Assembly: GCA_963722255.1 (NCBI GenBank)
Contig: CAVRJO010000002.1
Coordinates: 448,001 to 512,000, forward strand
Origin: Candidatus Babeliales bacterium
Lineage (GTDB): Bacteria > Babelota > Babeliae > Babelales > JANWKD01
Direction: 5' to 3'
DNA length: 64,000 bases
Under the pieces are notes generated by a model. That model ran no database searches, was not told where the DNA came from, and was given only the letters and a program-made list of their open reading frames with translations. Positions 10,486 to 62,616 of this stretch are shown one piece after another (positions within the stretch are counted from its first letter, which is position 1; each line of letters opens with the position of its first letter). Made by a program: the position numbers and the translations under genes.

Positions 10486-11449
10486 TAGCGCCCCGCTTTA
10501 ATTTCCGCACAAATGTGCTATACTATCCTTAAAATTTTAAAAAGGAGAAGCGAATGGCATTCAGTCTTGATTTAAGAGAACGAGTAATAGGGGCAGTTGA
10601 TGGTGGCATGCATATAGACGAGGCCGCTAAAATATTTGATGTCAGCAGAAGGGTAATTTATGAATGGTTAGAATTACGAAAAAAAACTGGCGAGCTCAAA
10701 CCAAAAACAGGTTATCAAAAAGGCCATAGCCACAAAATTACAGACTTGGAAAAATTCAAAGCATTTGCAAATTCTAATAAGCAATGTACATCCCCACAAA
10801 TGGTTATTAGATGGGAGCAACTTACAGGCGTGAAGGTCTCTGAAGACGTGATGCTACGGATGCTTAAAAAGATTGGTTTTACATCTAAAAAAAAACTTTT
10901 AGCTACGCCGAAGCAAATGCAAAAAAACGTGCCGATTTTTTAGAAGAAATTAAAGACATCGATCCAGCAAAAATCATTTACTCTGATGAAACTGGAATTG
11001 ACGATAATGAGGTCGTTCTTACTGGATGGGCACCACGCGGAGAACGTTGCCATGCGCAAAAAAAAGCTGAACGTAAAACACGTTATAATATCACGGCAGC
11101 ACTGAATTTAAATTTGTTGTTTGCGCCATTTTTGTTTGAAGGATATTCAAATTCTGCTGTTTATGAAACTTACGTAGAACAGGTTTTGGCTCCTGCGTTA
11201 GAACCTGGAATGGTACTTATAATTGACAATGCTAGCTTCCATAAATCTAAAAAAATAATTCAGCTTATCGAAGCCGCTTCGTGCAGAGTTATATTTTTAC
11301 CCCCATATTCACCTGATTTTAACCCAATTGAGCATCATTGGACGGCTGTCAAAAATGCAATCAGAAAAGCTGCTGAAAATATTAAAGATTTTTATGAAGC
11401 AGCTGTTTATGCATTGAGTGAAATGTGCGCGGCTTAACGAGGGGCGCTA
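10486..11449 (+). mobile_element. IS630-family insertion sequence
   Basis: TIRs TAGCGCCCC(GCT/TCG)TTAA (14/16 identical); TA duplication at 10484-10485 and 11450-11451. Confidence 0.93.
10554..11437 (+). CDS. IS630 transposase, -1 frameshift at an A9 run (10887-10895)
   Basis: N-terminal HTH (SLDLRERV); after the shift KKTFSYAEA...YSDETG, IIDNASFH, LPPYSPDFNPIE (DDE). Confidence 0.92.
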
Positions 11450-17341: not shown

Positions 17342-18078
17342 ATGTTCCTTTTTTTTTAGTCTGGGGATCATTTTTAAATATGCTTGCTTATCGGCTTATC
17401 TCTGGAGATAGCCTTCTACGTTCTCGCTCATTTTGTCCTTCCTGTGATACAACCATTGCTTGGTATGATCTTATTCCCTTAGCATCATGGCTTATTCTTA
17501 GAGGAAAATGTCGCAGCTGTTCAGCCTCTATCTCTCCGCTCTATTTTTTTATTGAATGTATTGCCGCATTAGTTTTTTCAGCTCTTGTTTATACCATGCA
17601 GCCTGATTTTTGGTTTGCCTACTTTATCTTCTTTTCAGCTTTGCTTGTAACTATACGAACTGATCTAGAATTTATGCTTATTTCTCGCTATGCTTCAGTT
17701 TTTCTTATCCCTCTAGGATTTTTTTTTAGCTTTACCTCATTCTTACCCATTTCATTAATAACCAGTTTAGTTGGTGCCTTAACTGCTTATTTATTTTTAA
17801 AGCTTATTACTGCACTCTTTTTTATGTGCACAAAAAAGGTCGGCATGGGAGAAGGCGATGGTGAACTTTTAGCCTTCATTGGTTCATTTCTTGGCATTAC
17901 AGGCTGGTGGATTTCGCTCATTGTGGGATCACTTTTAGGCTCAGTCTGTGGAATAGTATATATGTTTTATACGCAACAAAAGCATTCCATTAAAATGCCC
18001 TTTGGTCCCTTCTTAGCCTTTGGAGCACTAGCATATGTGCTTTTTGAAAAACAGCTTTTAGCTATTTTTGGTTTTTAA
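17342..18078 (+). CDS. pilD: Prepilin peptidase (A24), N-terminus shifted in a T run
   Basis: RSFCPSC, LIPLASWLILRGKCRSC, GMGEGD, PFGPFL; WGSFLN lies in frame upstream of 17380, with ATG 17342 one base out of frame. Confidence 0.88.
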
Positions 18079-19408
18079 GATGATAAGCGCAATCTATCTT
18101 ATGGATTTTCCAATCTTCTTTTTGGCATTCTTTTGAGCAATAATAAACAGCTGGACAAGCACCACACACCAAAAACTCCTTAGATTGTTCTGTTGTCTTG
18201 TGGCATTTTTGGCACTCACGGACTTTCTTTAAACAGTTACGTTTATGAGTAAGCCAATCTTTTTGTTGGCACCCTTTTGAACAATAGTGAACTTCTTTAC
18301 AGCACCCACACACCAAAAATCTTTTTTGCGAAAAATGCTCCCATGTCTTACAAAAATCACAACTTGCAGGCGTTCGAATACAATTTGCTGCTTCAATTAA
18401 CATATTTTTTATACAATTTCTATACGATTGAACAATTTCTTCTTTGTTTACTGCGTTCTTAAACAGAAGTTGGTTTTGTTTTTTTAGTTTCTGCGGAAAA
18501 GTACCAGCATCTATGGGTGAAAATACCTGAGACATTAAAATATATCGTCTCTCTAAATATTTTTGCAAATAAGTAGAATCTGCAAAACCTTGATACAAAA
18601 CAATAACTTTATTTTTATTTTTTAACATCTCTTCAATGCTCAGCTTAGCTATTAGGAAATCAAAATCCAAGACCCAATTCATAAAATTATTTTTAAAATA
18701 AATTAAGTTGTATTTTGTAAATATTTCATATAAAGCTTTTTTTAAGAGTTGACTGCCATCGCTACAATGAGTTTCAAAAAATTTTAGCGCAGATGCTTTT
18801 ATTAGAGCATATTCTTTATGTATAGATTCATCATCTTTTTCATTAAAACAGTGCTCAATAGCCGTTAATGCTTCTTTATATTCATCAACAGTCATATCTG
18901 GTAAATGTAAACTTTTTTCTCTCAATATTTCGCCTAAAATGCATTTTTCATTTTCTTTAAGCTTAAATTTTTTAATATCCCGCACATAATTGTTTATCCA
19001 TACTGCAAATTGAATAGGAATAGAAATTATTGGTATGCGTAAGGTTTGAGAAAATATCAATGCATTACTGTTACCACTTGTAGTGTCTGTAAAAATAGTT
19101 GGCAACTCTCCTTCTATCTTACTATAATAACTAGAAAACAAGTTATACAAAGAATCTGATCGATAATCGGTAAGTACAGTAAAATGAGAATCCTTACGAT
19201 TAATTTTTTTCAGCAAATAAGAGAAGTAATTATTTTCTTTTCCTTGAAGTTCATACAATTCTCTTTCAGACGGTTTTAATAAGCTAATATCGGCATCAAT
19301 CATTACAATAGTATTACCATAGCTTTTATAAACCTTAATAAAATTAAATACCCCCTGCAAGGAAAACACAATGACAAATGGTATGATAAATATTTTTTTC
19401 ACAAACAC
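18062..19408 (-). CDS. Secreted protein with two C-terminal MYND zinc fingers
   Basis: Two CxxC..CxxC...YCSKxCQxxDWxxHKxxC units; signal-like N-terminus. Confidence 0.88.
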   Translation of the reverse strand: MFVKKIFIIPFVIVFSLQGVFNFIKVYKSYGNTIVMIDADISLLKPSERELYELQGKENNYFSYLLKKINRKDSHFTVLTDYRSDSLYNLFSSYYSKIEGELPTIFTDTTSGNSNALIFSQTLRIPIISIPIQFAVWINNYVRDIKKFKLKENEKCILGEILREKSLHLPDMTVDEYKEALTAIEHCFNEKDDESIHKEYALIKASALKFFETHCSDGSQLLKKALYEIFTKYNLIYFKNNFMNWVLDFDFLIAKLSIEEMLKNKNKVIVLYQGFADSTYLQKYLERRYILMSQVFSPIDAGTFPQKLKKQNQLLFKNAVNKEEIVQSYRNCIKNMLIEAANCIRTPASCDFCKTWEHFSQKRFLVCGCCKEVHYCSKGCQQKDWLTHKRNCLKKVRECQKCHKTTEQSKEFLVCGACPAVYYCSKECQKEDWKIHKIDCAYHLKNQK

Positions 19409-19637: not shown

Positions 19638-20483
19638 ATGACTTGGGGACGATATCTCATTATTTTTTTATTATGCATACTACCTCTTCATGCAACCAGA
19701 TGGAACAAAAGTAAAAGAATCGAATGCAAACATACACCATCTTCTACACACTTTACATTAAAAGAAGTTCCTTACCGGTTTGTACGATGTGCAGCAACCC
19801 TCGTTGAAGAGGCAATTCGCTTAAATCTCAACTTAGTTAGTCTTGACACAGTCAAAGTTTTTACCGCCTTTGTACCATTTTACTTAGTAACACGCATGGC
19901 TGATGCTCAAGTGCATAATAACTTTTATGACATTTCTTGCCATAAAAATATCAATCAGATGCCTAATGCCGTTATTAACACAATTAATAAAGGATGCGAT
20001 CTTGGCATTGTTTTATTAAGTAGCCTTGCATTATTTGCCTGGGATGAAAAATTGCGCCTTACAGCGCGTATTTTTGGAATCGGTGCATTATCGGCCCTTT
20101 ATGCTAAAGATTTTGTCAAAAAAATTGAAGTAAAAAGCTGTTTGCGACCTTGGAATGAACATTTTAGTTCAAAAAAACAGTCTTTTGGCGGCTTTCCTTC
20201 CGGGCATATGATCGAAGCAACCTATATGCTTACCGTTTGGGGACTGCAATATGGGCTTAAAGCTGCTATTCCTTTAGGTCTGTTTGCAGGGCTTTCGTTT
20301 GGTGTGCTTGTTGGAAGCAATCGTCATTATGCTTCTCAAGCGGTTGCAGGTGCAGGATTTGGTGTAGCATTTGGACTTGCTGCTCATAAACTTATACATA
20401 CCAAAATCTCTGAAACAATTGATTGCAGTTTTGCACTAAACAAACAAAAGTTGCCGACCCTTTCTTTAGGATGCAGTTTCTAA
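19638..20483 (+). CDS. PAP2-family phosphatase
   Basis: K..RP, GFPSGH and (NR)HY motifs. Confidence 0.8.
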   Translation: MTWGRYLIIFLLCILPLHATRWNKSKRIECKHTPSSTHFTLKEVPYRFVRCAATLVEEAIRLNLNLVSLDTVKVFTAFVPFYLVTRMADAQVHNNFYDISCHKNINQMPNAVINTINKGCDLGIVLLSSLALFAWDEKLRLTARIFGIGALSALYAKDFVKKIEVKSCLRPWNEHFSSKKQSFGGFPSGHMIEATYMLTVWGLQYGLKAAIPLGLFAGLSFGVLVGSNRHYASQAVAGAGFGVAFGLAAHKLIHTKISETIDCSFALNKQKLPTLSLGCSF

Positions 20484-20594
20484 AAAAAATGTACTTTAAA
20501 AAAATATTTTTACAAAAGAAATTTTCTTTGATATAATTCATATAGAAATATAAAATATTCATTTTTAACAATTAAAAAAAGGATACCAACTTAT

Positions 20595-21293
20595 ATGAAA
20601 AACTATTTTCTTTTACTATTACTTTTCTTTGCATGGTGCAAAGGTATGGAAAACAGGGAAGAACTTCCTTCAATCAGAGAGCAGTTTCCAGATCTTTTCC
20701 AAAACAGAGAAGAATACCCTCATAACCTTGGATTGAGCTTTAATTTCCCACCATATTCAACTGATCAAAACCCTATGCCTGAATACGTAGAAAATTCAGT
20801 CAGTGCTATACAAAATAGTAACATTACCCTCGAAGAATCTGGCAATCCCTATAAATTTCAATGCATTTTCCCCAACTGTGCCATTTTTTCTCTTTGGAAA
20901 AAGTCAATCGACACTCATATACGTTCGCACACTGAAAAAAGACCTTATGTTTGTTCAACACTAAATTGTAATGCAGCTTTTAAGAGAAAAAATGACCTAA
21001 CCCAACACAAAATATCCCATAACCCTGTCAAGAAAGTTACTTGCTCGTTTCGTGGATGTACTAAAACTTTTACAAGACAATCTGATCTAAATAATCACTT
21101 GCTAAAGTTTCATCATATTAGTCTTCAAATTGAATGTAATGAATGTGATGCATCATTTGATAGAATACATTATGAAAAACATTGTAAAGAATTACATCCT
21201 GAATTAATTTATCAATGTTATCTCTGTGGTAAAAGATTTTACTCAGTGAAAGGTAAACGAACCCATTTTTCACAGAATCACAAATCAGCTTAA
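20595..21293 (+). CDS. Secreted C2H2 zinc-finger protein (5 fingers)
   Basis: Signal peptide; CX2-4C..H..H repeats with HTEKRPY linker. Confidence 0.9.
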   Translation: MKNYFLLLLLFFAWCKGMENREELPSIREQFPDLFQNREEYPHNLGLSFNFPPYSTDQNPMPEYVENSVSAIQNSNITLEESGNPYKFQCIFPNCAIFSLWKKSIDTHIRSHTEKRPYVCSTLNCNAAFKRKNDLTQHKISHNPVKKVTCSFRGCTKTFTRQSDLNNHLLKFHHISLQIECNECDASFDRIHYEKHCKELHPELIYQCYLCGKRFYSVKGKRTHFSQNHKSA

Positions 21294-21333
21294 CTATTTT
21301 TACAATCTCTTTATCAGCTTAGGATCTTTTATT

Positions 21334-22338
21334 ATGATAAAAAACTATTTTTTTGCATTATTACTTTCTCTTTCAGCATGCTGCAAAGGCATGGAACATA
21401 ATACCGGACAACTCCATCAGAAACTTCCTCGCATTAAAGATCATTTTTCAGATCTTTTCCCTCAACTTCCATCATTAAACTCTGAGGCCCCGGACATTTT
21501 ACCGCAAGGTGCATACCAATTGCTTTCCTTGGCTTACCGCAATAGCCTAGAACAGAATACTGATAGCATGGAAGAGGACACTGAACAACCCGATCAAACA
21601 GTTCCTTCCCTTAGAGAACTCTTTCCAGATCTTTTCACAATTGGAGAAGAATATCCTCAACATCCACCATTAAATTCTGAAACACAAGACATTTTAGCGC
21701 ACAGAACATACCTAGCTCCTTATGTTGAAGCATCATATAATTATTCCTTAGAAGAGACACCTAATTATCAAGTACAGACACCTCAAGTAAATGAAATCCC
21801 CAGTCCTAAAGAGCAGTTAACTATTATTCAATATAATACTCCACAATCACCGCAAAAATTTTACTGCGCACTTGGATGTGGAGTATTTTCATTGTGGAGA
21901 ACAAGTATAAAAACTCATGAACTTGCCCATACCGATGGAAAAAGAGTTCATACTTGCGATGCACCCAACTGCCATGCAACTTTTACTAATAAAGCTCAGC
22001 TTTCTACACATAAAAGAATGCACAATCCTACAGTGCTCTGCAGGGTCCAAGGCTGCAATAGAGCATTTGCACGAACTGATAATAGAGCAAGACACGAAGC
22101 AAGGCACCTTCAAAAAAAATCCTTCAAATGCGAAAGATGCGGAGCAGGATTTATAGAAAAAAGTGACTACAATAGACATAATGAACAACTTCATGAAAAA
22201 AACCACTTTCAATGCATTAAATGCTGTAAAAAACTATTTAATTCTTTTGGTAGACTACAACAACATTACAATAAGAAGGTCCGTAAAGGCGTACTAGAAA
22301 AATGTGCCGGCAAAATAATTGTTGCAGAAAACGTATAG
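21334..22338 (+). CDS. Secreted C2H2 zinc-finger protein (about 5 fingers)
   Basis: Signal peptide; P/Q/acidic region; fingers such as CRVQGCNRAFARTDNRARHEARH. Confidence 0.9.
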   Translation: MIKNYFFALLLSLSACCKGMEHNTGQLHQKLPRIKDHFSDLFPQLPSLNSEAPDILPQGAYQLLSLAYRNSLEQNTDSMEEDTEQPDQTVPSLRELFPDLFTIGEEYPQHPPLNSETQDILAHRTYLAPYVEASYNYSLEETPNYQVQTPQVNEIPSPKEQLTIIQYNTPQSPQKFYCALGCGVFSLWRTSIKTHELAHTDGKRVHTCDAPNCHATFTNKAQLSTHKRMHNPTVLCRVQGCNRAFARTDNRARHEARHLQKKSFKCERCGAGFIEKSDYNRHNEQLHEKNHFQCIKCCKKLFNSFGRLQQHYNKKVRKGVLEKCAGKIIVAENV

Positions 22339-22352
22339 TTCAAAACTTTCTT

Positions 22353-22505
22353 TTATGCCAAATCATCAACAACGATTTTTATATCATTGTTTGGACTTGC
22401 TCTGCTCATAAACTTATACCTATTAAAATCTCTGAAACAATTGATTGAAATTTTGCCTTAAACAAAGAACAGATGCCAACGGTTTCTTTAGGTTATAATT
22501 TTGTA
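22353..22505. pseudogene. Duplication junction: pilin 3' remnant (minus, 22353-22390) fused to a PAP2 3' remnant (plus)
   Basis: Matches 23660-23697 and about 20370-20483. Confidence 0.85.
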
Positions 22506-22613
22506 AAAGATAATTTTAAATTACCTTTTACAAAAGAGCTTTTCTTTGACATAATTCATATAGAATCATAAAAAATTCATTTTTTAACAACTACAAAAGA
22601 AATATCAACTTAT

Positions 22614-23630
22614 ATGAAAAACTATTTTTTTGCATTATTATTTTTCTTTGCTTGCTGCAAGAGCATGGAACATACTACCGGAAGACTTCCTTCCATTAGA
22701 GAGCAGTTTCCAGAACTTTCCTTTCAACTTCCACCATTAAATTCTGAGACATCAGACATTTTAGCGCACAGTTCACCCCAATTGCTTTCCTTGGCATGCT
22801 ATAATAGAATGGAACAGACCACTGATAGCATGGAAGAGGACACTGAACAACCCGATCAAATACTTCCTTCCATTAGAAAACAGCTTTCAGGTTTTTTCAC
22901 TCAAACTCCACCATTAAATCCTGAACCACAAGACATTTTAGCGCACCGAACATACCTAGCTCCTTATGTTGAAGCATCATATAATTATTCCTTAGAAGAG
23001 ACACCTAATTATCAAGTACAGACACCTCAAGTAAATGAAATCCCCAGCCCTACTGAAGAGCAGTTAACTATTATTCGATACATACCCTCTCCAAAATCAC
23101 CGAACACACTCGCTCCAAACATACCCACTCCAAAATCAGCACAACAATTTTACTGCGCACTCGGATGTGGAGTGTTTTCATTTTGGAGAAAAAGTATAAA
23201 ACTGCATGAACTCGCTCATATCGATGAAAAAAGAATTCGTATTTGCGATGAACCAAATTGCCATGCTGCTTTTAGTGATAATAGTGCACTTACTAGACAT
23301 AAAAATATGCACAGGCCTACACTGCGCTGCCGATTTCAAGGCTGCAATAGAACATTTGCACGAAAGGATAATAGAATAAACCATGAAGAAACACACAAAA
23401 AAAGATCCCTTCAAAAAAGTCTCTTCAAATGTTTAAGATGCAGGGCAAAATTTACAATAGAAGGTGACTACAATAGGCATAATAAACAACGTCATAAAGA
23501 AAATGGCTTTCAATGCATTAGATGCTGTAAAAAACTATTTCATTCTAAAGGTAAATTATGTCAACATTACAATAAAAAGATCCGTAAAGGCATACTAAAA
23601 AAATGTGACGGCAAAATAATTGTTGCATAA
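22614..23630 (+). CDS. Secreted C2H2 zinc-finger protein (about 5 fingers), paralog of 21334-22338
   Basis: Long identical DNA blocks with the 21334 gene; C2H2 repeats. Confidence 0.9.
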   Translation: MKNYFFALLFFFACCKSMEHTTGRLPSIREQFPELSFQLPPLNSETSDILAHSSPQLLSLACYNRMEQTTDSMEEDTEQPDQILPSIRKQLSGFFTQTPPLNPEPQDILAHRTYLAPYVEASYNYSLEETPNYQVQTPQVNEIPSPTEEQLTIIRYIPSPKSPNTLAPNIPTPKSAQQFYCALGCGVFSFWRKSIKLHELAHIDEKRIRICDEPNCHAAFSDNSALTRHKNMHRPTLRCRFQGCNRTFARKDNRINHEETHKKRSLQKSLFKCLRCRAKFTIEGDYNRHNKQRHKENGFQCIRCCKKLFHSKGKLCQHYNKKIRKGILKKCDGKIIVA

Positions 23631-23659
23631 ATTGTATAGTTAAAAATCAAAACTTTCTT

Positions 23660-24142
23660 TTATGCCAAATCATCAACAACGACTTTTATATCATTGTGAT
23701 GATTCACCGTTAATAGATCTGCAGTACCATCTCCATCAATATCTCCGGCTGCTGCAATAATAAATCCTTCTTTATCGGCTTTAGTTGTCCCTAATGCAGA
23801 TTGCGGCGCTGACAATTTGCCAGTAAAATAGTTTTGTCCTTCTTGGCCTTGATTAAATCCATAGGTGTAATTAAATTTTTCTTGCGCTCCACCACCAGAA
23901 TATCCTTCCGGCTTCCAGCCAATACCATCTTTACCAAGAAGCACAGATGAAAAAGTTCCATTTTCAGCCCAATAAGTCTTTTGTGCAACATATAATGAGC
24001 CTAAATTCATGTAAGCCTCGGCTCGTTTAGCCTTTGAAAGAAATTTTAAGAAACTTGGAACAGAAATCATTGATAAAAAACCTATAATAGCTACCACTAT
24101 CATAAGCTCAATCATAGTAAAACCCTGAATATTTCGCTTCAT
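23660..24142 (-). CDS. Type IV pilin (PilA-like)
   Basis: G|FTMIELMIVVAIIGFL class III signal; C-terminal DIDGDG. Confidence 0.9.
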   Translation of the reverse strand: MKRNIQGFTMIELMIVVAIIGFLSMISVPSFLKFLSKAKRAEAYMNLGSLYVAQKTYWAENGTFSSVLLGKDGIGWKPEGYSGGGAQEKFNYTYGFNQGQEGQNYFTGKLSAPQSALGTTKADKEGFIIAAAGDIDGDGTADLLTVNHHNDIKVVVDDLA

Positions 24143-24634
24143 TGACCCTACCCTAACCCTATAAAGCTTTATTGATATCATGATAGTGTAATGAGGATGC
24201 CTAAAGTCAATAATTTTGAAAAAAATAGATTTTCCCAGGAAAAAGCTTTACTAAAAAGATTAGTGATTTCAAAAGTCATATTCCTATTCATTAAAATGGT
24301 TTTTGACCAACCACTAGAAATATTTTCTATTTGAAACAATCAAAAGCTTTAAACCATCACACATAAAGCTATTTATACCTGTAAAACAGCCGCTTATCAT
24401 TTTTAATCTTTTGTAAATACTAGGCAGGTTTTTTCATATATAATTCAATGTTTGACATTTTTAAAAAATATTATACTATTAAATAGAAGATAGGACCCCA
24501 TCAAAGGCAAACTAAACAAGTTCTATATAATTTAAGTATTCGCTTTCATATTATTACTGCTTACCGGCTAATTAATATCAATCAGCAATAATAAATGAAG
24601 AGGTTTTTTAAATACATTCTATTTTGGAGAAAAA

Positions 24635-26386: not shown

Positions 26387-27117
26387 AAGTTTTTAATGTC
26401 GAACATGTATGGCATCCACTTAAATTGCTTGGCATTGATTCATCTATAATCAGTATCACCATCCCAACTGTCATTAATACGTGGATTGTTTTATTCGTTT
26501 TAACGGGATTTATTCTACTTTTTCGATTACTACTTTATAAAAGTAATGTTGTGACTTTTCTTGTACATTCGTTTGTCGATTCATTTATAGAGCTTTCAGT
26601 TCAATCTTTAGGTAGCTTTAACTACACCCATTTTGCTTTCGTTTTTTCTATTTTTGTGTTTATTCTTTTGTGTAATTGGATTGCTCTCATCCCTTTTGTT
26701 GAAGAACCAACAAAGGATATCAATACAACGCTTGCACTGGGATGCATATCGTTTTTTTATAAAGAATTTTATGCGATAAAAACACATGGCTTTCTTGCCT
26801 ATATTAAAGAATTTTTTCATCCTTTTTTTGTAATGTTTCCACTCAATCTCATAAGCCATTTTTCAAAAATCATTTCAATATCATTTCGCCTTTTTGGAAA
26901 TATCTTTGGTGGTTCAATCATTACTCAAATCTATACGAGTGCAATTTCACTCTCGTTCTTAACTGAACTCTTTGGCTTATTATCAGGAATAAATTTTTTA
27001 GTACTTTCTTTTTTTATCCTTTTTGAAGGCTTAATTCAAGCGTTTGTTTTTACTATGTTAACGCTAACCTATCTTGCTATTGCAGTACAAACTGAGGAAG
27101 AAGAGGCACCCATATAA
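26374..27117 (+). CDS. atpB: F0 ATP synthase subunit a
   Basis: PTKDINTTLAL, SFRLFGNIFGG, IQAFVFTML. Confidence 0.93.
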   Translation: MEGLEVFNVEHVWHPLKLLGIDSSIISITIPTVINTWIVLFVLTGFILLFRLLLYKSNVVTFLVHSFVDSFIELSVQSLGSFNYTHFAFVFSIFVFILLCNWIALIPFVEEPTKDINTTLALGCISFFYKEFYAIKTHGFLAYIKEFFHPFFVMFPLNLISHFSKIISISFRLFGNIFGGSIITQIYTSAISLSFLTELFGLLSGINFLVLSFFILFEGLIQAFVFTMLTLTYLAIAVQTEEEEAPI

Positions 27118-28082
27118 TGGAACATATAAGTTCATTTCTTCATTATGGAACAATCTTGTTTATTATTGGTACTACTTCTCTTGGCACCGGTATTGGTGGC
27201 GGCAAAGCAACCATGAAAGCTCTCGATGCACTTAATTGCTCGCCAACATCTTTTCCTGAAATTTTTAGAGCTCTCATCATAGGCCTTGCTCTTATTGAAA
27301 CAAGTGCAATTTTGGGTATCGTTATGGGACTCATTCTTATTCTCGGGCAACCCCTGCAGGACAACGGAAATCTCTTTATTACGCTGGGTGAAATAGGCAT
27401 TGCATTCGCTTTAGGAATATCAGGAGGACTCGTTGGACTTCTTTCAGCATTACCTGTGCAAGAAGCCGTCTATGCTATTGCTCGGCAACCATTTTTTAGT
27501 AACAAAATTTTAAATACAATGCTTTTAACGCAATCAATTGTTCAAACACCGGTAATTTTTAGTTTTTTAATTGCCTTATTTATTAAAGGACAAATAGGCG
27601 CCGTAACTACCTACGCAAATAGTATACGTTTAGTAGCAAGCGGATTATGCATTGGCATTGGAAGCATAGGGCCAACTATTGGCTTAGCTCGTTTTGCACA
27701 AATTGCTAATAGATGTATAGCATTCAATCGAGAAGCCTATTCAACGCTCATGCCATTCATTTTTGTCAGTCAAGCAATTATCGAAACACCTATAATTTTT
27801 GCTGTGCTTGTTACGATTATTTTATTATTTACGCCAATAAAACCTGATAATGAAACATTAGGGGCGCTATCATGTATTGCGGCAGCATTCTGCGCTGCTC
27901 TTGGTACCTTAGGACCCGGTATTAGTTCCGGCAAAATTGCATCTGCTGCATGCAAGGAAATTGCTTTAAATCATGAAAACAGTTCTATCATTTCTCGAAC
28001 AAGCATTTTGGGACAAGGCATTATCGATGCTGCAGCCATGTATGCTTTACTTGTTGCATTGATTATTATAATTTTGAGGTAA
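27117..28082 (+). CDS. atpE: F0 ATP synthase subunit c made of four fused hairpin repeats
   Basis: Four Gly-rich helix/loop/helix units; ARQP loop in repeat 2; ion-site residues LIET, IVQT, IIET, IIDA. Confidence 0.85.
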   Translation: MEHISSFLHYGTILFIIGTTSLGTGIGGGKATMKALDALNCSPTSFPEIFRALIIGLALIETSAILGIVMGLILILGQPLQDNGNLFITLGEIGIAFALGISGGLVGLLSALPVQEAVYAIARQPFFSNKILNTMLLTQSIVQTPVIFSFLIALFIKGQIGAVTTYANSIRLVASGLCIGIGSIGPTIGLARFAQIANRCIAFNREAYSTLMPFIFVSQAIIETPIIFAVLVTIILLFTPIKPDNETLGALSCIAAAFCAALGTLGPGISSGKIASAACKEIALNHENSSIISRTSILGQGIIDAAAMYALLVALIIIILR

Positions 28083-35296: not shown

Positions 35297-36166
35297 TTAT
35301 TTAAAATGATTTGTTCTTGCTTTATAAAGCGCTAAAGAATCGATAGCATCTAATAACTTTAGGTCTTTTGCCTCTTTTTTACTCTGCCAATATGCTTCAC
35401 AATGAATGCTAAGATTCGGAATGCAATAACCATTAAAGTTAAGCCAACTAAACAGTCCGGTTAATCCAACCACACTTCCCAAAAATACGTTTCCCGTTGC
35501 GCATAATGCAAGACTCCCACCGGTACAAATTCCCGAACCATAGGCACAAGTTGAATCACCAAACTTTACGCAGTTTTCCTTAAATGAAGATTTTTTGTTC
35601 CATTGGCGCATCCATTCTAAGAGCGTAATTCTTGATGCCATCCATAATTTAGGTGCATCAGAGAGCTCTTGGAAATTGTCATTAAAATAGTTTGTTTGCT
35701 CTTTTGATAATATTTTTTCAACAGCATCTGCCAAAGCATTATGATCAATAGCTACACGACTAAAAAGATCATACATTTCAAAAGATTTTTCACTAAACGC
35801 AGCTAATGCTGTATCAATAGTAGCATCTTCTTCTAAAGATCTATAAACATTTTCAATATCACTACTTCCATTTTCTTCTACAAATTCTGAATACTCATCA
35901 AATTCAAAATAATAACCATATAGATGCGGCACGTACTTATTCATACGCATTGGAAATTCAAGAGTCTTTTGATAAAGGCTTAATTGGCCATTGTGTTTTG
36001 AAAGATCAGCGCAACTTTTATGAATCACTACCATCGTAGCTATGTGATATACCAATAAGCCATAATTTTTTTGATTAAGAGGAACATCTTCAACAGCGAT
36101 CTCTTTTTCCATCGAAAAAAGTGAACAACTAAACGTCAACAATACAACACATACAAGTTTTTTCAT
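35297..36166 (-). CDS. Secreted hypothetical protein with C-terminal TM hairpin (paralog of 36342)
   Basis: Shares FNDNFQELxDAPKLWMASR with 36342-37169. Confidence 0.75.
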   Translation of the reverse strand: MKKLVCVVLLTFSCSLFSMEKEIAVEDVPLNQKNYGLLVYHIATMVVIHKSCADLSKHNGQLSLYQKTLEFPMRMNKYVPHLYGYYFEFDEYSEFVEENGSSDIENVYRSLEEDATIDTALAAFSEKSFEMYDLFSRVAIDHNALADAVEKILSKEQTNYFNDNFQELSDAPKLWMASRITLLEWMRQWNKKSSFKENCVKFGDSTCAYGSGICTGGSLALCATGNVFLGSVVGLTGLFSWLNFNGYCIPNLSIHCEAYWQSKKEAKDLKLLDAIDSLALYKARTNHFK

Positions 36167-36251
36167 ATACAACTCCTTCTAGCAAGCAGTGAAACACTCA
36201 AGACATGGTAATGAAAAAGTATACTAATTTCAAGTTTGGTCTATAGTCGAC

Positions 36252-36341: not shown

Positions 36342-37169
36342 TTAATTGTTAGTATAACAAGCTAAGGAATCTATTGCTGCTGATAATTTTAAGTCTCTCT
36401 CTTCTCTTTTATTCTGCCAATATTCTGCGCAATTAAAATTTAAATCCTGAATACAATGTCCTTTGAAATTCAAACATGTTGATATCCCCGTAAGCACCAT
36501 AATGGCTCCGAACAAAAAATTCCCACTCGTACATGATGCAATACCTAAACCAGTGCAAACTCCTGGACCATAGGACGTAGCATGATCACAAAACTCTGCA
36601 CTTTTTTCGAAGAATGGGTGTTCCTTATTAACATGCCGCATCCATTCAAGCAGTGCCATTCGAGAAGCCATCCAAAGCTTTGGTGCATCAGTTAACTCTT
36701 GGAAATTGTCATTAAAAAACTCTATTTGCTCTTTTGTTAACATCTCTTTCACAGACTCTTCTAACTGTTTATAATCAATATTTTTACCAGAATAAGCATC
36801 ACGCGCTTCAAACGAACGTTTACAATAGGTATCCAAAACTGCCTCTAAATCATTATCTTCTTCTAATGCTCGAGCTACAGACCTTATGTCACTTTGACCA
36901 TATTTTTTAATAAAACTTTTATACTCTAATTCAGGTAGAGGATGCTTGCACATACATGCCGGAAAAGTAATCACTTTCTGACAACACATAAAACTAACAT
37001 TTCTCATATAAAAATTTGATTTACTTGTATGAATAACCACCATTGCTGCTATATGGTGCGACAATACTTTATCAGTTTCATTAAGAAAAACTTCGGCCGA
37101 AACATCTTCTTCCATTGAAAATAATGATCCACTAAAAATCAATAGCAAACCAAATACCATTTTTTTCAT
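36342..37169 (-). CDS. Secreted hypothetical protein (paralog of 35297)
   Basis: Signal LFS|ME; shared motifs with the 35297 gene. Confidence 0.75.
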   Translation of the reverse strand: MKKMVFGLLLIFSGSLFSMEEDVSAEVFLNETDKVLSHHIAAMVVIHTSKSNFYMRNVSFMCCQKVITFPACMCKHPLPELEYKSFIKKYGQSDIRSVARALEEDNDLEAVLDTYCKRSFEARDAYSGKNIDYKQLEESVKEMLTKEQIEFFNDNFQELTDAPKLWMASRMALLEWMRHVNKEHPFFEKSAEFCDHATSYGPGVCTGLGIASCTSGNFLFGAIMVLTGISTCLNFKGHCIQDLNFNCAEYWQNKREERDLKLSAAIDSLACYTNN

Positions 37170-41073: not shown

Positions 41074-41994
41074 ATGGGTGGGAAAATGAAGTATCGCTAT
41101 TTTTATTCTTTTCTGTTCCTCTTTTCATCTTCTTATACGCAACCCTTTGATGTAATACCTTATATCAGTCCTATTTTTTCTTTCATGGTAGGCACATTCA
41201 CCTATTTTTCTTTCATCACCGATCATTTTATCCCCGCTTCTAGGCAAGAACTTTATACTACTGAGCAAAGAATCACAAAAATGCATGAAAACAACAGATG
41301 CATTATGCAAGAATATGCTCAAAAAAATATTCGCGAGCAGTATGAGCAAACAAAAACGGAAGTTGAAGCTAAAATAGATAGTGCAATTGCTACCTGTTAT
41401 CAAAAATCACGGGCAATAAAAGAAGCATTAGATTCCACACAAACACTCATTATAAAAAAAATAGAAAGAAGTCATCGCATCAGAATGCAATCACTCAAAA
41501 ATAATCTTGCATCCTATGCAGATTCTACGCAAGAAGATATCACTGCGCTCATAAAAAAATTAACTCTTGCATATGAAAAACGAGAGAGTCAAATTCAACA
41601 CCAATGCACTCAAATTCTCAATCTACTGAGCAACTTTCAAAAAAAATTGCATCAAAAAACAATAACTACACAACGGATTATACAAAATACCACTCAAGAA
41701 CATACAAATCTGCTCACAAACAATCATGATCAAATAAAAAACAACTATGACCAGACTGCAGAAAAATGTAACCATTTTTTTATACAAACTTCTGAAAAAC
41801 TAGACGCCATCGAACGATTGTGTTGCATCCTTAAAGGAGTCATTGCAGAACAAAAACAAAAAAATATTGCACTCTATAAGCAAATTCTTGCATTAAAAAA
41901 ACTACGAAAAAATGATTCACTTCTCTCTATTAAAAATGCATTTGGTTCAAATAAATCTTTAAAGAATTATAGTAACTTGGATTACAAACAATGA
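41074..41994 (+). CDS. Membrane-anchored coiled-coil protein
   Basis: Signal, hydrophobic segment, long Q/K/T-rich heptads. Confidence 0.7.
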   Translation: MGGKMKYRYFYSFLFLFSSSYTQPFDVIPYISPIFSFMVGTFTYFSFITDHFIPASRQELYTTEQRITKMHENNRCIMQEYAQKNIREQYEQTKTEVEAKIDSAIATCYQKSRAIKEALDSTQTLIIKKIERSHRIRMQSLKNNLASYADSTQEDITALIKKLTLAYEKRESQIQHQCTQILNLLSNFQKKLHQKTITTQRIIQNTTQEHTNLLTNNHDQIKNNYDQTAEKCNHFFIQTSEKLDAIERLCCILKGVIAEQKQKNIALYKQILALKKLRKNDSLLSIKNAFGSNKSLKNYSNLDYKQ

Positions 41995-42932
41995 TTTCAG
42001 TTTTTTGTAAAAACTCAATGAGAACAACAATCTTCCTCATAGTAAGCACTCTATTCTTTCAAATAAACTGCATGGAAAGAAATCAACTCATCCTTTTAGT
42101 AATAAAACAAATTCTTGCCTCTATTAAACCGATTCAAGAACCAATAAGTAAATCATTTTTACAACAATCGCTAGAAACGACCAAAGATATTTCTTTAAAA
42201 CTTTTTATCGCATGTTATAAACATCCAAAGATCATTATTGGCGCTACAACTTTGACCCTTCTTTTAATTTCGCTCAAAAAATCTTCTCTTTTGCCGATTA
42301 CCATACATAATTTAAAAAAATTTGAGCAGAAATGCGCAAAAAAAGCACAAAATCAGATAAGAAAATTTATGGAAAACACTGCGAAATCTTCTCAAGAAGC
42401 TTCTCGGCAACTTACTACCTCAATTGATGCATCACAAACACAATTGTTTGTGCTTAACGATGAACTTGAACAAAACCAACAAGTTCTCATGCAAATGCCT
42501 GAAGAAATTGCACAATCAGTTGCTTTATACAATGTTCAAGAAGAAAAAAACCACGATGAACTTTTTTCACATGCACATAGACAAAGAACGACACAGCTTA
42601 ATACGTTAGAAACGCATGCCAGGAATCTTATGGATAATGACGAGATTATTGTTACTGACTTTTTAAAAAAATTTCTTACTGAAACGACTCAATTAGATAA
42701 TTCATTGGATTTTAACATTGAAACCATTGTGAACTCATTAGCGCAAGAAACGGCACTACTTCATCAGACTATGCATCAAAACAATCACCAAGAAAACCTA
42801 CAGCTTACTCGCCTGAATTCAACGGTAGATAATCAGCATAATAATTTGGCCGAACGTGTTGACTCTCTAATTATTCTTCTTACAGGATTAGTTGATACAT
42901 CTGAAGAGTTGGTGTATGAAAAGACATTATGA
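41991..42932 (+). CDS. Membrane-anchored coiled-coil protein
   Basis: Signal INC|ME, HPK followed by a TM segment, heptads. Confidence 0.7.
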   Translation: MISVFCKNSMRTTIFLIVSTLFFQINCMERNQLILLVIKQILASIKPIQEPISKSFLQQSLETTKDISLKLFIACYKHPKIIIGATTLTLLLISLKKSSLLPITIHNLKKFEQKCAKKAQNQIRKFMENTAKSSQEASRQLTTSIDASQTQLFVLNDELEQNQQVLMQMPEEIAQSVALYNVQEEKNHDELFSHAHRQRTTQLNTLETHARNLMDNDEIIVTDFLKKFLTETTQLDNSLDFNIETIVNSLAQETALLHQTMHQNNHQENLQLTRLNSTVDNQHNNLAERVDSLIILLTGLVDTSEELVYEKTL

Positions 42933-43058: not shown

Positions 43059-44057
43059 ATGACTTACAAACGTTCATCAATCTTTTTTACCGCATTATTG
43101 TTTTTTTTGTTGCAGCACCAATCTGTACAAACAATGGAAAATCAATCACAACCTTCACATTCAAATAAATTGAGTATCTTCAATCCATTATCCTGGGTTT
43201 ATGGATTATACTCTAGCTTTTATTATAATTTTGGATGGATGACAGATGCTGCTTGTGAAGAAAAAATAACAGCATCATTTAATAAATTGGAGAAATTCAT
43301 TCAAGTGATGTTTGCAGATATCCTTGATGGAAATCATAGCTTTGCTCAGCAAATTTTAGAAGATGGTAAAAACTTACATGACATACTCAATTCTACCACA
43401 ATAAATGTCCAAGATTTAAAACTCTTTTTTTTAGGAAAAATACAATCATTAGAGAAAGAACGACAAATAACAAATGCAATATTTGAAAAAACTATTAATG
43501 ATTTAAGAAAAACACTACAAAGGTTTTCAAAAACTCGCCAGACTGTAAGTAACCTTGAGAAGCAATTTTCAATTTATAGCCAACTAACTCAAGAAGAAAT
43601 TGAACAAAATAATCAAAGTTTAAGCTCACTTGGAGAAAAGTACAAAGATAAAATTAAAAGTTTATATCGTCTTCAAGAAAAACATCACAAAGAACACCAA
43701 ATCCAAGTATCACAACTTCAGTCTCAACAACAAGACTTTTATCAGCAAACAACAGAAAGTCTTAAAGCTGTCCAACAAACAACGCAACAATGCCAAGAAG
43801 AATGCGAAAAGAAACAAGATAAGGGAACTCAAGAAGGAGAAACTATTCTTGAGTTATTACAAAAAATACGAGAAAATGATGTTGCTTTACAGAAAGTATT
43901 AAACATACTGCCTAATTCAACTAACCACGTTCAAGCAACTCCCAAAAAGTCAAAGCAAAAATCTCTTAACACCTCAGTCTTTCCTAACCGATTAAGAAAA
44001 GAATTTAAAGTTTTTGCTCCACCCATAGGTACTTCCATATATGGACGAGATATATAA
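43059..44057 (+). CDS. Secreted coiled-coil protein
   Basis: Signal VQT|ME, aromatic segment, Q/E/K heptads. Confidence 0.7.
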   Translation: MTYKRSSIFFTALLFFLLQHQSVQTMENQSQPSHSNKLSIFNPLSWVYGLYSSFYYNFGWMTDAACEEKITASFNKLEKFIQVMFADILDGNHSFAQQILEDGKNLHDILNSTTINVQDLKLFFLGKIQSLEKERQITNAIFEKTINDLRKTLQRFSKTRQTVSNLEKQFSIYSQLTQEEIEQNNQSLSSLGEKYKDKIKSLYRLQEKHHKEHQIQVSQLQSQQQDFYQQTTESLKAVQQTTQQCQEECEKKQDKGTQEGETILELLQKIRENDVALQKVLNILPNSTNHVQATPKKSKQKSLNTSVFPNRLRKEFKVFAPPIGTSIYGRDI

Positions 44058-44093: not shown

Positions 44094-45074
44094 ATGATTC
44101 AAGGAACACAAAGCATGAGAATTTTATTGTTATCATTATTCTTTACACAAGCTTGGTGTATGGAAAGCTCACAGCTAGTTATTGTTAAATTTGAAGATTT
44201 AAAAGAACTTGTTCAGCAGTGCAGCAAAGAAGCTGTTGCTGCAGCAATAAAGAAAGAATCCCCTTCTTTTTTTTCATCAACTTTTAAATTCATTGCAAAT
44301 CATCCAAAAGAACTGTGGGCAACAGTAGCATATGGTGCTATAGTTGCTACTTTCCTGGGATTTTCAAGAAGTAAATTTTTCTGGAGCACCCCAAAAAAAT
44401 TCGATGCTTTATTAGAAGCAAAAGAAACTGAACTTGTGAACGAGCTCTATGATATAAAAAATCTTATTGAAGCATCCCGTGCAAATGTAGGTTCAGCATA
44501 CCTCAATACTATGAACGGTCTTAATGCTGGTATAGCCGCCATCGATAACTCCCTGGGAGAATCTAAAAGAGAAGTGGAAGATGTTTATAGCAAAGCTCTT
44601 GCTCGTGAACTCAATCGCCGTTTAGTGCTTATTCAAAAAGCTACCATTACCTCACGTTTTACTCAAAACGGCATAAATACCCTTGATTCATCGCTTTTTT
44701 CTTTACAGTGCTCCGCTCTGCAAGAACAAGAAAAAATCAAGGATGAACTTGCGCAACAAGGAGAAGCAATCGCCGCTCTTGATGAAGACACTGAAAAGGA
44801 ATTTGATACAACAACCAACACGATGACCTCTAATCATGATGAGGAATCACGATCATTACATTCCTTGGGCAATCAAATGTCAGGAAATAATGAAGATATT
44901 CGAGAAACACTTCTTCACGTTGAGATTACTACAAGGGTTCTTGCAAAAAAACTTCCTACAGTTGATGATACCAATGAAGAAAATAAAGAAAATATCCGGG
45001 AAGCATTTAAAATTATTGAAAACCAAGCTCACCTCATTGCTCAACTTCAGGGCTTAGTGCAGGAAACTCAGTAG
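44094..45074 (+). CDS. Membrane-anchored coiled-coil protein
   Basis: Signal AWC|ME, HPK followed by a TM segment, heptads. Confidence 0.7.
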   Translation: MIQGTQSMRILLLSLFFTQAWCMESSQLVIVKFEDLKELVQQCSKEAVAAAIKKESPSFFSSTFKFIANHPKELWATVAYGAIVATFLGFSRSKFFWSTPKKFDALLEAKETELVNELYDIKNLIEASRANVGSAYLNTMNGLNAGIAAIDNSLGESKREVEDVYSKALARELNRRLVLIQKATITSRFTQNGINTLDSSLFSLQCSALQEQEKIKDELAQQGEAIAALDEDTEKEFDTTTNTMTSNHDEESRSLHSLGNQMSGNNEDIRETLLHVEITTRVLAKKLPTVDDTNEENKENIREAFKIIENQAHLIAQLQGLVQETQ

Positions 45075-47124: not shown

Positions 47125-47556
47125 TTATTGAGAATGTGCCTTCTTCTGTTTATTATATTTCTTTCGTATAGTTTCATAGCCCATCTTCGCGTCTTCGTCT
47201 TCAAGAATATGGTTATACATCTTGCTTCGATCTATTTCTTTTCGTGGACCTACTGTATACATCAGTTTACCATACCAAGTACATTTTTTTCCTCTACACT
47301 TTGTACGAGAAAAATAGATTTCCTTAATCTCTTCACTATTGCGAACCATCAAAGAATAGGCATATATTTTTATTCCGCTTTCTTTATTTTTTTCAACTTT
47401 TCTTTTTATAGTGCAATCAGTTTCATTAATTAATCTCTTCAATTGAATTTTATCTATTGTTTTTTTTGGATATCTATCTTGCAAATCTTCTTCCATACAG
47501 TAAAAACTGGTATTACCGATAAGAAAACTCAAAAATAAGATAGTAAATAATCTCAT
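47125..47556 (-). CDS. Secreted hypothetical protein
   Basis: Signal FYC|ME; basic mature part. Confidence 0.7.
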   Translation of the reverse strand: MRLFTILFLSFLIGNTSFYCMEEDLQDRYPKKTIDKIQLKRLINETDCTIKRKVEKNKESGIKIYAYSLMVRNSEEIKEIYFSRTKCRGKKCTWYGKLMYTVGPRKEIDRSKMYNHILEDEDAKMGYETIRKKYNKQKKAHSQ

Positions 47557-52248: not shown

Positions 52249-52441
52249 TATAGAAGCCTTAAGAAAGATATAATTATTTTTAGTATTTAAATATAACAAG
52301 ATGATAACAATTATGAGCTGGTTGCTCAATAGTATTATTTAATGATAATCATCAATACAAAAATATTTATTGCTTCTCTTGAAGATATTTTTTCTCTATG
52401 AAAATATGCAAGGTAAACCGCCTGCGCTAAAAACTTATATA

Positions 52442-61549: not shown

Positions 61550-62008
61550 TCAAATGACTCTAAACTCTAAAATATCCCGGAAATCAACATTCCATTCAGA
61601 AATTTTATTTCCACTTTCGGTAATTGTTTCCCTTGGGGTTACATATAAGTAACAGGTATTTGCATCAAAAGGTGGCAAACCTTTTGATCTTTCTTGAAAT
61701 ATTTCATAAAACAAACAATGGTTTTGCACAAATACCGTATTATTTTCTTTATATAAAACCCAAAGGGCAATCCATGGATTTTCTATGGGTCCAGCAAATT
61801 TTACTACAAAACAGGAAAAGCTGTGAGTTTTAATTCTTTCAATGGCTTCTCTCCATTGTTGTTTATATTCATCAACAGTCCACATATCAAGCGCCATATA
61901 AAAAGTTTCTTTTAAATCACCAATCGTAATTTGTCCTCTATACGCTTTAATATTATTAATAGTTTCCGGTTTTTTGCTTATTACTTCGATATTAAAATTT
62001 TTTATCAA
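61550..62008 (-). CDS. CdiI-like immunity protein
   Basis: G.I.IGD..ETF....D.W..DEYK.QW, WVLY.E...V.VQN, RET....G..ISEW. Confidence 0.7.
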   Translation of the reverse strand: MIKNFNIEVISKKPETINNIKAYRGQITIGDLKETFYMALDMWTVDEYKQQWREAIERIKTHSFSCFVVKFAGPIENPWIALWVLYKENNTVFVQNHCLFYEIFQERSKGLPPFDANTCYLYVTPRETITESGNKISEWNVDFRDILEFRVI

Positions 62009-62081
62009 TTTTTATTAACTTTCAATTGAAGTTTTATCTCTTTTACTTATAAAATCTCCGGTTATCCAAGCAGATTTAGGA

Positions 62082-62543: not shown

Positions 62544-62616
62544 TTTTTATTAACTTTCAATTGAAGTTTTATCTCTTTTACTTATAAAATCTCTGGTTAT
62601 CCAAGGAGATTTGGCA

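Follow-up and report, generated by a model that had tools for sequence, protein, structure and literature searches.

Leader-bearing tandem C2H2 zinc-finger proteins of a Candidatus Babeliales bacterium as candidate host-directed transcription-factor mimics

Introduction

Transcription activator-like (TAL) effectors, produced by Xanthomonas and Ralstonia, recognize host DNA by means of tandem repeats and possess an acidic activation region as well as a nuclear localization signal (NLS). Ros/MucR is a bacterial DNA-binding Cys2His2 zinc regulator that consists of a single, larger, non-classical domain; it is cytoplasmic and has no leader. Only one effector family was known in 2017 to target DNA directly, according to the available part of an article of that year (PMC5570926). 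MoHTR1 and MoHTR2 of the rice blast fungus are described, in the available part of their report, as secreted C2H2 nuclear effectors that combine a signal peptide with a C2H2 finger, MoHTR2 being 110 amino acids (aa) long with one zinc-finger domain (PMC12488382). Leader-bearing eukaryote-like proteins in expanded, clustered families are described for Babela massiliensis and Chromulinavorax destructans in the available text of their genome papers (PMC4378268, PMC6561590). The present report deals with three adjacent genes that encode leader-bearing proteins with tandem C2H2 zinc fingers. They were identified in a stretch of 64,000 nucleotides (nt) of a Candidatus Babeliales bacterium (assembly GCA_963722255.1, contig CAVRJO010000002.1, positions 448,001 to 512,000 of the forward strand), the whole of which is referred to as the window.

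The three proteins, P1, P2 and P3, are strong candidates, on the evidence of their sequences, for proteins sent into a protist host to bind its DNA or RNA. They are read as leader-bearing TFIIIA/Krueppel-type proteins, recently duplicated, that would be delivered into the host as transcription-factor mimics; belief and doubt in this reading are evenly balanced. A putative nucleomodulin role, which a first-pass annotation of the window had proposed, is the leading hypothesis, with indirect support from the architecture found throughout a phylum-wide family, from TGEKP linkers and from variability at base-contact positions.

Domain organization of P1, P2 and P3

The three open reading frames (ORFs) are present and intact where the first-pass annotation had placed them, and form a tandem set of paralogues on the plus strand (Table 1). 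P2 and P3 are 69-70% identical, and P1 and P3 are 39-45% identical over the fingers. Each pre-protein would consist of three parts: a Sec-type, signal-peptidase-I-type leader, an acidic region with one or two LPSIREQFPDLF-like motifs, and a basic array of four or five fingers.

P1 contains five canonical fingers (aa 90-112, 120-142, 150-174, 181-201 and 208-229), P2 contains four (aa 178-199, 208-230, 236-258 and 266-287) and P3 contains four (aa 181-202, 211-233, 239-261 and 273-294). The fifth unit of P2 and P3 is degenerate (C-X2-C-C-X12-H followed by a distant Cys) and has lost the last His; the earlier count of about five tandem fingers is therefore correct for P1 but generous for P2 and P3. 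The ligand pattern C-X2-4-C-X12-H-X3-5-H is found in all 13 canonical fingers (with X11 in one). The CX4C spacing, which had been noticed as frequent, occurs in seven of them, CX3C in two and CX2C in four. The inter-finger linkers are 5-8 residues long, and one of the ten, the previously noted HTEKRPY of P1 (nt 20928-20948), is Krueppel-like.

P1 exceeds the curated Pfam cut-offs for zf-H2C2_2 (44 versus 40 bits) and zf-C2H2 (33 versus 25.2 bits), whereas P2 and P3 fall just under the latter. A phmmer search of P1 against PDB sequences returned 105 matches; all of the 60 that were listed are C2H2 zinc-finger proteins, either eukaryotic or designed, and the best match is fingers 1-3 of Xenopus TFIIIA (1tf6, E-value 5e-16), which have the same CX4C spacing. 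The finger region of P1 (aa 85-232) was modelled in a second AlphaFold2 (AF2) run with an alignment of 22 finger regions from the phylum. The mean predicted local distance difference test (pLDDT) score was 83.3, with strand-strand-helix (beta-beta-alpha) units in fingers 1-4 and a weak finger 5 (48-66). Foldseek matched this model to DNA-bound CTCF, WT1, TFIIIA, ZNF410, PRDM9 and GLI (probability 1.00, E-values down to 6.7e-8) and also to the WT1-RNA complex 6wlh. Matches in the ESM Atlas were confined to generic zf-C2H2 clusters, mostly without taxa. The fingers are thus assigned by sequence to the classical eukaryote-type (TFIIIA/Krueppel-type) C2H2 class, and zinc binding is predicted. The proposal of eukaryote-type tandem C2H2 arrays in bacterial genes is supported by the Pfam matches and, for P1, by phmmer, AF2 and Foldseek.

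The region between leader and fingers was described earlier as low in complexity and rich in Pro, Gln and acidic residues, and its composition and net charge agree in all three proteins. These linkers (69-160 residues) contain 11.5-13.8% Pro, 5.8-10.8% Gln and 12.5-17.4% Asp plus Glu, with net charges of -9 (P1), -15 (P2) and -11 (P3); the finger regions carry +14, +19 and +26, respectively. A LPSIREQFPDLF-type motif occurs in the acidic part once in P1 (FPDLF, aa 31-35), twice in P2 (FSDLF, aa 38-42, and FPDLF, aa 97-101) and twice in P3. Its F-[S/P]-D-L-F core presumably resembles short acidic-hydrophobic activation motifs such as that of p53. The AF2 model of whole P3, based on three sequences, has a mean pLDDT of 42.9, with values below 50 for aa 1-206 and of 60-79 for fingers 2-4. 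The low confidence in the acidic region is compatible with disorder, and this N-terminal region is probably disordered. A search of 1.84 billion representative sequences with the P3 linker matched only P2 and one repeat-rich protein of 1766 aa. The latter, matched over 13 stretches at 28% identity, was read as a compositional match and rejected as a relative of the linker.

The basic patches KKVRK and KKIRK, which had been put forward as NLS-like, are present in P2 and P3, but they are weak evidence for an NLS because they are short stretches within an already very basic domain. The mature proteins after the leader are 215-321 aa long, a size estimated to be small enough for nuclear entry by diffusion.

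A phylum-wide family of multi-finger proteins

A profile built from the trio was searched against 261 genomes of the phylum. It matched 63 of them, in 39 of 145 genera, always through the finger part, and the matches often lie in tandem clusters (e.g., 18 in G024 and 13 in G013, with large clusters near 1.02-1.03 Mb and 234-241 kb, respectively). Tandem C2H2 arrays had been called rare in bacteria, which does not hold inside this phylum. ORFs were then surveyed in the present genome and in 22 loci from 21 relatives; 21 of these loci yielded ORFs, and six ORFs at contig edges were dropped. There were 61 complete ORFs with at least three fingers, and 60 of them passed the threshold of leader hydrophobicity, the exception being L109:2545-3189; one of the 60, L105:3373-3897, looks atypical. 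An ME-type leader end was found in 39 of the 61, a net-acidic linker in 48 and a net-basic finger region in 56.

Among 386 canonical fingers of the family, the framework Phe is kept in 329 and the Leu in 355, and entropy is highest at helix positions -1 (3.46 bits), +3 (3.51 bits) and +6 (3.56 bits). The inter-finger linkers are exactly seven residues long in 264 of 303 cases, with the consensus T-G-E-K-P-[Y/F]-x. Seven-residue TGEKP linkers and variability at -1, +3 and +6 are marks of DNA-reading Krueppel-type arrays. The trio is placed, by sequence, in a large, fast-evolving, leader-bearing family of polydactyl zinc-finger proteins that spans this Babeliales/Dependentiae-type phylum of protist parasites.

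No orthologue of the trio was found outside this genome in searches of proteins, genome contigs and the phylum. A word-indexed search of 5.8 billion proteins gave 397 candidates, from which only the two paralogues of the query in this genome emerged as close relatives. An alignment of the trio found no close relative in genome contigs, and P1 had no match in viral contigs. A literature search brought up no account of polydactyl C2H2 proteins exported by bacteria, the supplementary tables of the Dependentiae genome papers lying outside its scope. The available text of three such papers contains neither "C2H2" nor "MYND", and "zinc" appears there for ion transport only (PMC4378268, PMC6561590, PMC4776705).

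Leader peptides and the Met-Glu leader class

The leaders of the trio, MKNYFLLLLLFFAWCKG, MIKNYFFALLLSLSACCKG and MKNYFFALLFFFACCKS, are each followed directly by Met-Glu. They comprise 17-19 aa with a basic start (MKNYF...), 11-13 hydrophobic residues and then C-K-[G/S] before the Met, so that Cys is invariant at -3 and Gly or Ser stands at -1. Leaders were scored by a basic start together with a 10-residue Kyte-Doolittle window of at least 2.0 without an acidic residue. The signal peptides predicted in the first-pass annotation were recovered in each protein, as signal-peptide-like by hydrophobicity and by a -3/-1 heuristic. Export across the inner membrane is strongly suggested.

The heuristic marks 632 of the 1529 ORFs of the genome (41%) as leader-bearing. 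An [AGSC]-M-[EDQ] motif directly follows the hydrophobic stretch in 144 of these 632, compared with six cases in a control stretch (positions 40-60) of these ORFs and 28 among 897 ORFs without a leader. Members of this class have A, G, S or C at -1 and mostly L, I, A, S or V at -3. The residue after the leader Met (n = 265) is E in 112 cases, N in 27, Q in 17 and D in 13, against a background of 5% for E after Met. The motif was also found in 46 of 173 and 24 of 151 leader-like ORFs in 400-kb samples from two other families of the phylum, with two and three cases, respectively, at the control positions.

A 400-kb sample of the present genome contains 47 ORFs with the motif, of which 35 have no Pfam match. 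The 12 with a match contain ankyrin (four), beta-propeller (two), J-domain (two), Skp1-POZ (one), C2H2 (one), thioredoxin (one) and beta-lactamase-fold (one) domains, those of the first five kinds being present in 10 of the 12. The same sample has 124 leader-like ORFs without the motif. Of the 95 that were scanned, 32 had a match, mostly to envelope or membrane proteins or enzymes, including solute-binding protein (SBP), TamB, BamD, M48, M3, thioredoxins, and glycosyl- and methyltransferases; ankyrin (three), WD40 (two) and DOT1-like (one) matches were also obtained. In eight envelope housekeeping proteins that were inspected, the likely +1 position is never Met and is occupied by ordinary residues. 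The leader of the trio thus belongs to a class rich in orphan and eukaryote-type proteins, which fits a host-directed secretome and does not prove one. No paper on a Met-Glu leader motif was met, no literature search having been aimed at it. Met followed by E, D, N or Q defines the substrate class of the eukaryotic NatB, and Met is a stabilising N-terminal residue.

Within the window, leaders ending in [A/G/S/C]-Met-[Glu/Asn/Gln/Asp] were also found at 35297-36172 (-), 36342-37169 (-), 41991-42932 (+), 43059-44057 (+), 44094-45074 (+), 47125-47556 (-) and 51130-52329 (-).

The lipobox pattern [LVI][ASTVI][GAS]-C is matched by LSAC of P2 and not by FAWC of P1; FFAC of P3 fits only a looser, PROSITE-style rule. 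The first ATG of P1 and of P2 is preceded, at 9-11 nt, by an AGGA-type box, and such boxes directly abut the internal ATG. The genome contains one LspA gene and two signal peptidase I genes, paralogues at G000:C2:137986-138699 (-) and 701964-702665 (+), one of which might serve the Met-Glu leader class.

Several other leader-bearing proteins of this genome were recorded. Two J-domain (DnaJ) proteins with a Met-Glu or Met-Gln leader (G000:C1:792392-793132 (-) and 795708-796313 (-)) look like exported proteins of a co-chaperone-like kind. Two tandem paralogues of 738 aa (G000:C1:503535-505751 (-) and 505879-508095 (-)) have identical leaders; one matches beta-propeller models (top E-value 3.7e-9, every match far under its curated cut-off), and a Skp1-POZ model is matched by the other (E-value 9.9e-7). 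A 229-aa protein of the DOT1-like histone-methyltransferase family (G000:C1:415495-416184 (-); PF08123, E-value 3.4e-17) has an N-terminal hydrophobic leader or anchor. Dependentiae DOT1 homologues cluster with those of Legionella, amoebae and giant viruses, as reported in the available part of a review (PMC10117894). SET-domain genes were not found in the present genome, which is 93% complete.

The gene island and its duplication history

The trio lies on a 5.6-kb island flanked by the genes for a prepilin peptidase and a pilin, together with a MYND-finger gene and a PAP2 gene (Table 1). In a genome of the same genus (G108) and one of the same family (G110), the order is RbfA, PilD, pilin, at most one gene, and FolC, with PilD and pilin adjacent and the island absent. 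A functional tie of the trio to the flanking pilus genes was rejected, since in these two genomes no island separates those genes. The protein of the MYND-finger gene has the only MYND matches in the genome, and no match was found in 14 control genomes. MYND is a eukaryotic module that binds co-repressors.

Several duplications are visible within the island. A second copy of the PAP2 3' end (20380-20486) lies at 22402-22508. The segment 20508-20651, with the promoter, 5' untranslated region (5'UTR) and leader of P1, is about 82% identical to 22526-22670 at P3, as is the longer segment 20380-20651 (PAP2 end, promoter-like site, 5'UTR and P1 leader) to 22402-22670, upstream of and into P3. The promoter-like site of P3 is homologous to the P1 promoter region, and no other site in the region scores as high as that of P1; the overall number of promoter-like sites is at the level of chance (24 found versus 22.2 expected). 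Positions 22340-22390 and 23647-23697 are 98% identical. A 153-nt tract is 96% identical between P2 (21656-21808) and P3 (22900-23052), the rest being about 80% identical, which suggests recent gene conversion between the two genes. A repeat scan for the ends of a mobile element gave the internal duplication structure only and no flanking repeats. Judged by these sequences, the trio is a set of recent tandem duplicates on a lineage-specific island.

In the comparison of P2 with P3, the ratio of nonsynonymous to synonymous substitution rates (dN/dS) has an overall value of 0.82, the linker giving 1.01, the fingers 0.77 and the leader 0.26; the fingers of P1 and P3 give 0.22, with dS saturated. 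P2 and P3 share all 16 zinc ligands of their four fingers, a region 67% identical between them, for which the chance is about 0.0016 if changes are evenly spread. The trio has thus evolved fast with its ligands kept, a pattern that would fit either an arms race or relaxed constraint.

Genomic context

The locus is part of a 712-kb contig of a 1.62-Mb genome with 34% GC, and GC content is even across the locus. A search for sequencing runs that contain the locus gave no RNA run and only two metagenomic DNA runs, with small shares (0.09 and 0.07). The genes around the trio are bacterial and encode a BamA-type POTRA protein, GltX, RbfA, prepilin peptidase, pilin, an FolC-like protein, ATP synthase subunits a and c, IscU and IscS. 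The best match of the IscS of the window among genome contigs is a Candidatus Babeliales metagenome-assembled genome (55% identity), all remaining matches being at most 46% identical. Eukaryotic contamination, which the first-pass annotation had raised as a concern, was rejected on the strength of the bacterial neighbours, the even GC content and the long bacterial contig.

The genome contains about nine C2H2 genes, many ORFs for ankyrin proteins and two secretin genes. Two copies of gspD are reported as core and present in all TM6 genomes in the available text of one study (PMC4776705). The available text on Chromulinavorax gives signal peptides for 44% of coding sequences (PMC6561590). With its two secretins, its proportion of leader-like ORFs and its many ankyrin ORFs, the present genome fits these published features of Dependentiae.

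Table 1. Positions of the three zinc-finger genes and of the features around them in the window
Feature	Position	Strand	Details
Prepilin peptidase (PilD-type), conserved left flank	17380..18078	+	Pfam A24_N_bact 2.4e-22, Peptidase_A24 3.3e-11
Island gene 1, 448 aa, N-terminal hydrophobic leader, region without known domain, two C-terminal MYND fingers	18062..19408	-	zf-MYND 8.8e-19, two stretches
Island gene 2, PAP2-superfamily membrane phosphatase with leader	19638..20483	+	PF01569 30.3 versus 27.2 bits
Promoter-like site upstream of P1, TTTACA-17-TATAAT with TG	20509..20537	+	11/12 matches, best in region
P1, 232 aa	20595..21293	+	Leader aa 1-17; acidic linker aa 18-86; five C2H2 fingers aa 90-229; HTEKRPY aa 112-118
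P2, 334 aa	21334..22338	+	Leader aa 1-19; acidic P/Q linker aa 20-174; four canonical fingers aa 178-287; degenerate fifth aa 294-324; KKVRK aa 314-318
Promoter-like site upstream of P3, TTTACA-17-CATAAT with TG	22527..22555	+	10/12 matches; homologous to P1 promoter region
P3, 338 aa	22614..23630	+	Leader aa 1-17; acidic P/Q linker aa 18-177; four canonical fingers aa 181-294; degenerate fifth aa 301-331; KKIRK aa 321-325
Type IV pilin-like protein, conserved right flank	23660..24181	-	N_methyl 1.5e-7; orthologues adjoin PilD in G108 and G110

Three further features of the window were recorded. An IS630-type transposase at 10554-11437 (+) is split into a helix-turn-helix part (10554-10943) and a DDE_3 part (11114-11437) and is probably broken. 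The match to ATP synthase subunit c is confined to the C-terminal part (best stretch aa 254-317) of a 321-aa ORF at 27117-28082 (+), which encodes either an unusually long c subunit or a protein whose start was called too far upstream. Three tandem genes at 61550-63066 (-), each with a CdiI_N immunity-protein domain (E-values 1e-21 to 2e-24), may form an orphan immunity array.

Proposed function and alternative explanations

In the proposed mechanism, P1, P2 and P3 would be exported by the Sec pathway and the leader cut just before Met-Glu. The mature proteins would be released from the envelope through the type II secretion-type secretins of the phylum or in vesicles. They would then fold with zinc in the reducing host cytosol and bind host nucleic acid, most probably nuclear DNA, in a sequence-specific manner, and the acidic region would serve as an effector or as an activation-like module. 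It is plausible that they are released to the host, since secretins are present and the literature, as far as the available text of one genome paper goes, treats leader-bearing eukaryote-like proteins as secreted (PMC4378268). From these observations, we infer delivery into the host, a nuclear target, a preference for DNA over RNA and an effect on transcription. By analogy, nuclear DNA binding would be the best-fitting use of such arrays.

A number of points weigh against this proposal. The leader call rests on the hydrophobicity and -3/-1 heuristic described above, and the lipobox-like LSAC of P2 and FFAC of P3 make membrane anchoring possible. Passage of the outer membrane and arrival in the host are steps that we infer, and the Cys-rich fingers would have to cross the periplasm in an unfolded or oxidised state. 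The NLS-like patches are short. The scores of P2 (24.4 bits) and P3 (19.3 bits) lie just under the zf-C2H2 cut-off of 25.2, Krueppel-like linkers are limited to one in ten, and the hydrophobic core of finger 1 is off-register; the trio is a divergent member of the phylum family. Changes between P2 and P3 affect 9 of 16 specificity positions and 12 of 32 other positions, which is not a significant excess (p = 0.24), and dN/dS values of 1.01 in the linker and 0.77 in the fingers suit relaxed constraint as well as diversifying selection. C2H2 fingers are also able to bind RNA or proteins.

Several other explanations have to be weighed against a role as transcription-factor mimics. The proteins may reach the host and there bind RNA or proteins in the cytoplasm or organelles, the acidic region being a docking motif. 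C2H2 arrays such as those of TFIIIA and WT1 bind RNA as well, the Foldseek matches include the WT1-RNA complex 6wlh, and canonical TGEKP linkers are few in the trio. The adjacent island gene carries MYND fingers, a protein-binding module, and the ankyrin, WD and J-domain proteins with the same leader type are protein binders. Such targets are nevertheless unlikely, given the very basic finger regions (+14 to +26) and the DNA-reading pattern of the family, with its TGEKP linkers and its peak of variability at -1, +3 and +6. It is quite improbable that the proteins are exported and then retained by the bacterium as periplasmic, lipid-anchored or surface proteins that bind zinc or extracellular or incoming DNA (pilus-linked uptake, nucleotide scavenging). 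The position of the genes between those for prepilin peptidase and pilin, the lipobox-like sequences of P2 and P3, the invariant Cys at -3 of the leaders, and the capacity of each protein for four or five zinc ions would suit such a role. The link to the pilus genes is not conserved, however, PilD and pilin being adjacent without the island in G108 and G110. Moreover, P1 has W at -1 of the putative lipobox and does not fit, the leaders match the genome-wide [AGS]-ME class, in which Cys is not needed, and family members elsewhere lie in tandem clusters of their own.

Two further explanations concern whether the genes have a maintained function and whether the proteins are exported at all. Eukaryote-derived genes drifting to loss would account for the P2-P3 dN/dS of 0.82 overall and 1.01 in the linker, for the missing last His in the fifth finger of P2 and P3, and for the failure to find orthologues even within the same genus. 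All three frames are intact, however, and the 16 of 16 ligands kept between P2 and P3 (chance about 0.0016), the dN/dS of 0.26 in the leader and 0.22 between the fingers of P1 and P3, the conserved promoter regions and an architecture kept in 60 of 61 relatives make decay very improbable. The least probable explanation is that translation starts at the internal Met (ME...) and yields proteins that stay in the cytoplasm and regulate genes of the bacterium itself, perhaps at their own promoters. A Met does directly follow every leader, but the leader frame is open and begins with ATG and a basic residue, and its small residues at -1 and -3 are kept, a constraint that would be senseless in untranslated DNA. 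The purifying selection on the leader (dN/dS 0.26), the AGGA-type boxes at a distance of 9-11 nt from the first ATG in P1 and P2 but abutting the internal one, and the presence of a leader in 60 of 61 family members point the same way.

The reading of the trio as host-directed transcription-factor mimics can be extended to the phylum, tentatively and with doubt outweighing confidence. The family would then be a phylum-wide arsenal of secreted Krueppel-type mimics, with an acidic, activation-like head and a finger array, whose leaders form a distinct class cut before Met-Glu, Met-Asp, Met-Gln or Met-Asn. It would be the zinc-finger equivalent of the TAL effectors, and the finger residues might in principle reveal its target sites in the host. 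The mature N-terminus would resemble that of a normal eukaryotic cytosolic protein, helping escape from the N-degron surveillance of the host.

If the proposal is true, the trio would represent a second, independent bacterial way of reading host DNA by a modular repeat code, TAL effectors being the first. Rules relating C2H2 fingers to bases exist, so that host targets of an uncultured phylum might be predicted from sequence alone, which would make host manipulation by Dependentiae directly testable. The family also supplies several hundred naturally occurring bacterial fingers that turn over rapidly, and the Met-Glu leader class offers an easy sequence criterion by which proteins of the phylum that are probably secreted towards the host can be selected.

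Comparison with known systems

TFIIIA, CTCF, WT1, ZNF410 and GLI share with the trio the ligand pattern, the predicted beta-beta-alpha units and the tandem arrangement of fingers, and with the wider family the TGEKP linkers. Unlike eukaryotic polydactyl C2H2 factors, the trio is bacterial, has a cleavable-type signal peptide and a lineage-specific acidic linker without relatives, and carries no KRAB, BTB, SCAN or other eukaryotic partner domain in Pfam. Ros/MucR differs in that the trio has tandem classical fingers and a leader; no Pfam match to ROS_MUCR was found in the trio at E-values up to 0.1.

MoHTR1 and MoHTR2 are the closest working analogue, likened by description and not by sequence, as both combine a signal peptide with C2H2 fingers. 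They belong to a eukaryotic pathogen and use eukaryotic secretion, whereas the trio comes from a bacterium and has four or five fingers. TAL effectors are not homologous to the trio and serve as a working analogy only: they have repeats of 33-35 aa with repeat-variable di-residues (RVD) and type III secretion, whereas the trio has C2H2 fingers and a Sec-type leader, and no TAL-type 33-35 aa RVD repeats were found in it.

The signal-peptide-bearing ankyrin, WD40, F-box and Ulp1-like proteins of Dependentiae resemble the trio in having a Sec leader on a eukaryote-type module and in forming expanded, clustered families. The modules described for Babela massiliensis and Chromulinavorax destructans, in the available text on them, bind proteins and not nucleic acids, unlike those proposed here. 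Leader-bearing eukaryote-like effectors of Dependentiae are known; the present analysis adds the leader-bearing polydactyl C2H2 architecture spread across the phylum.

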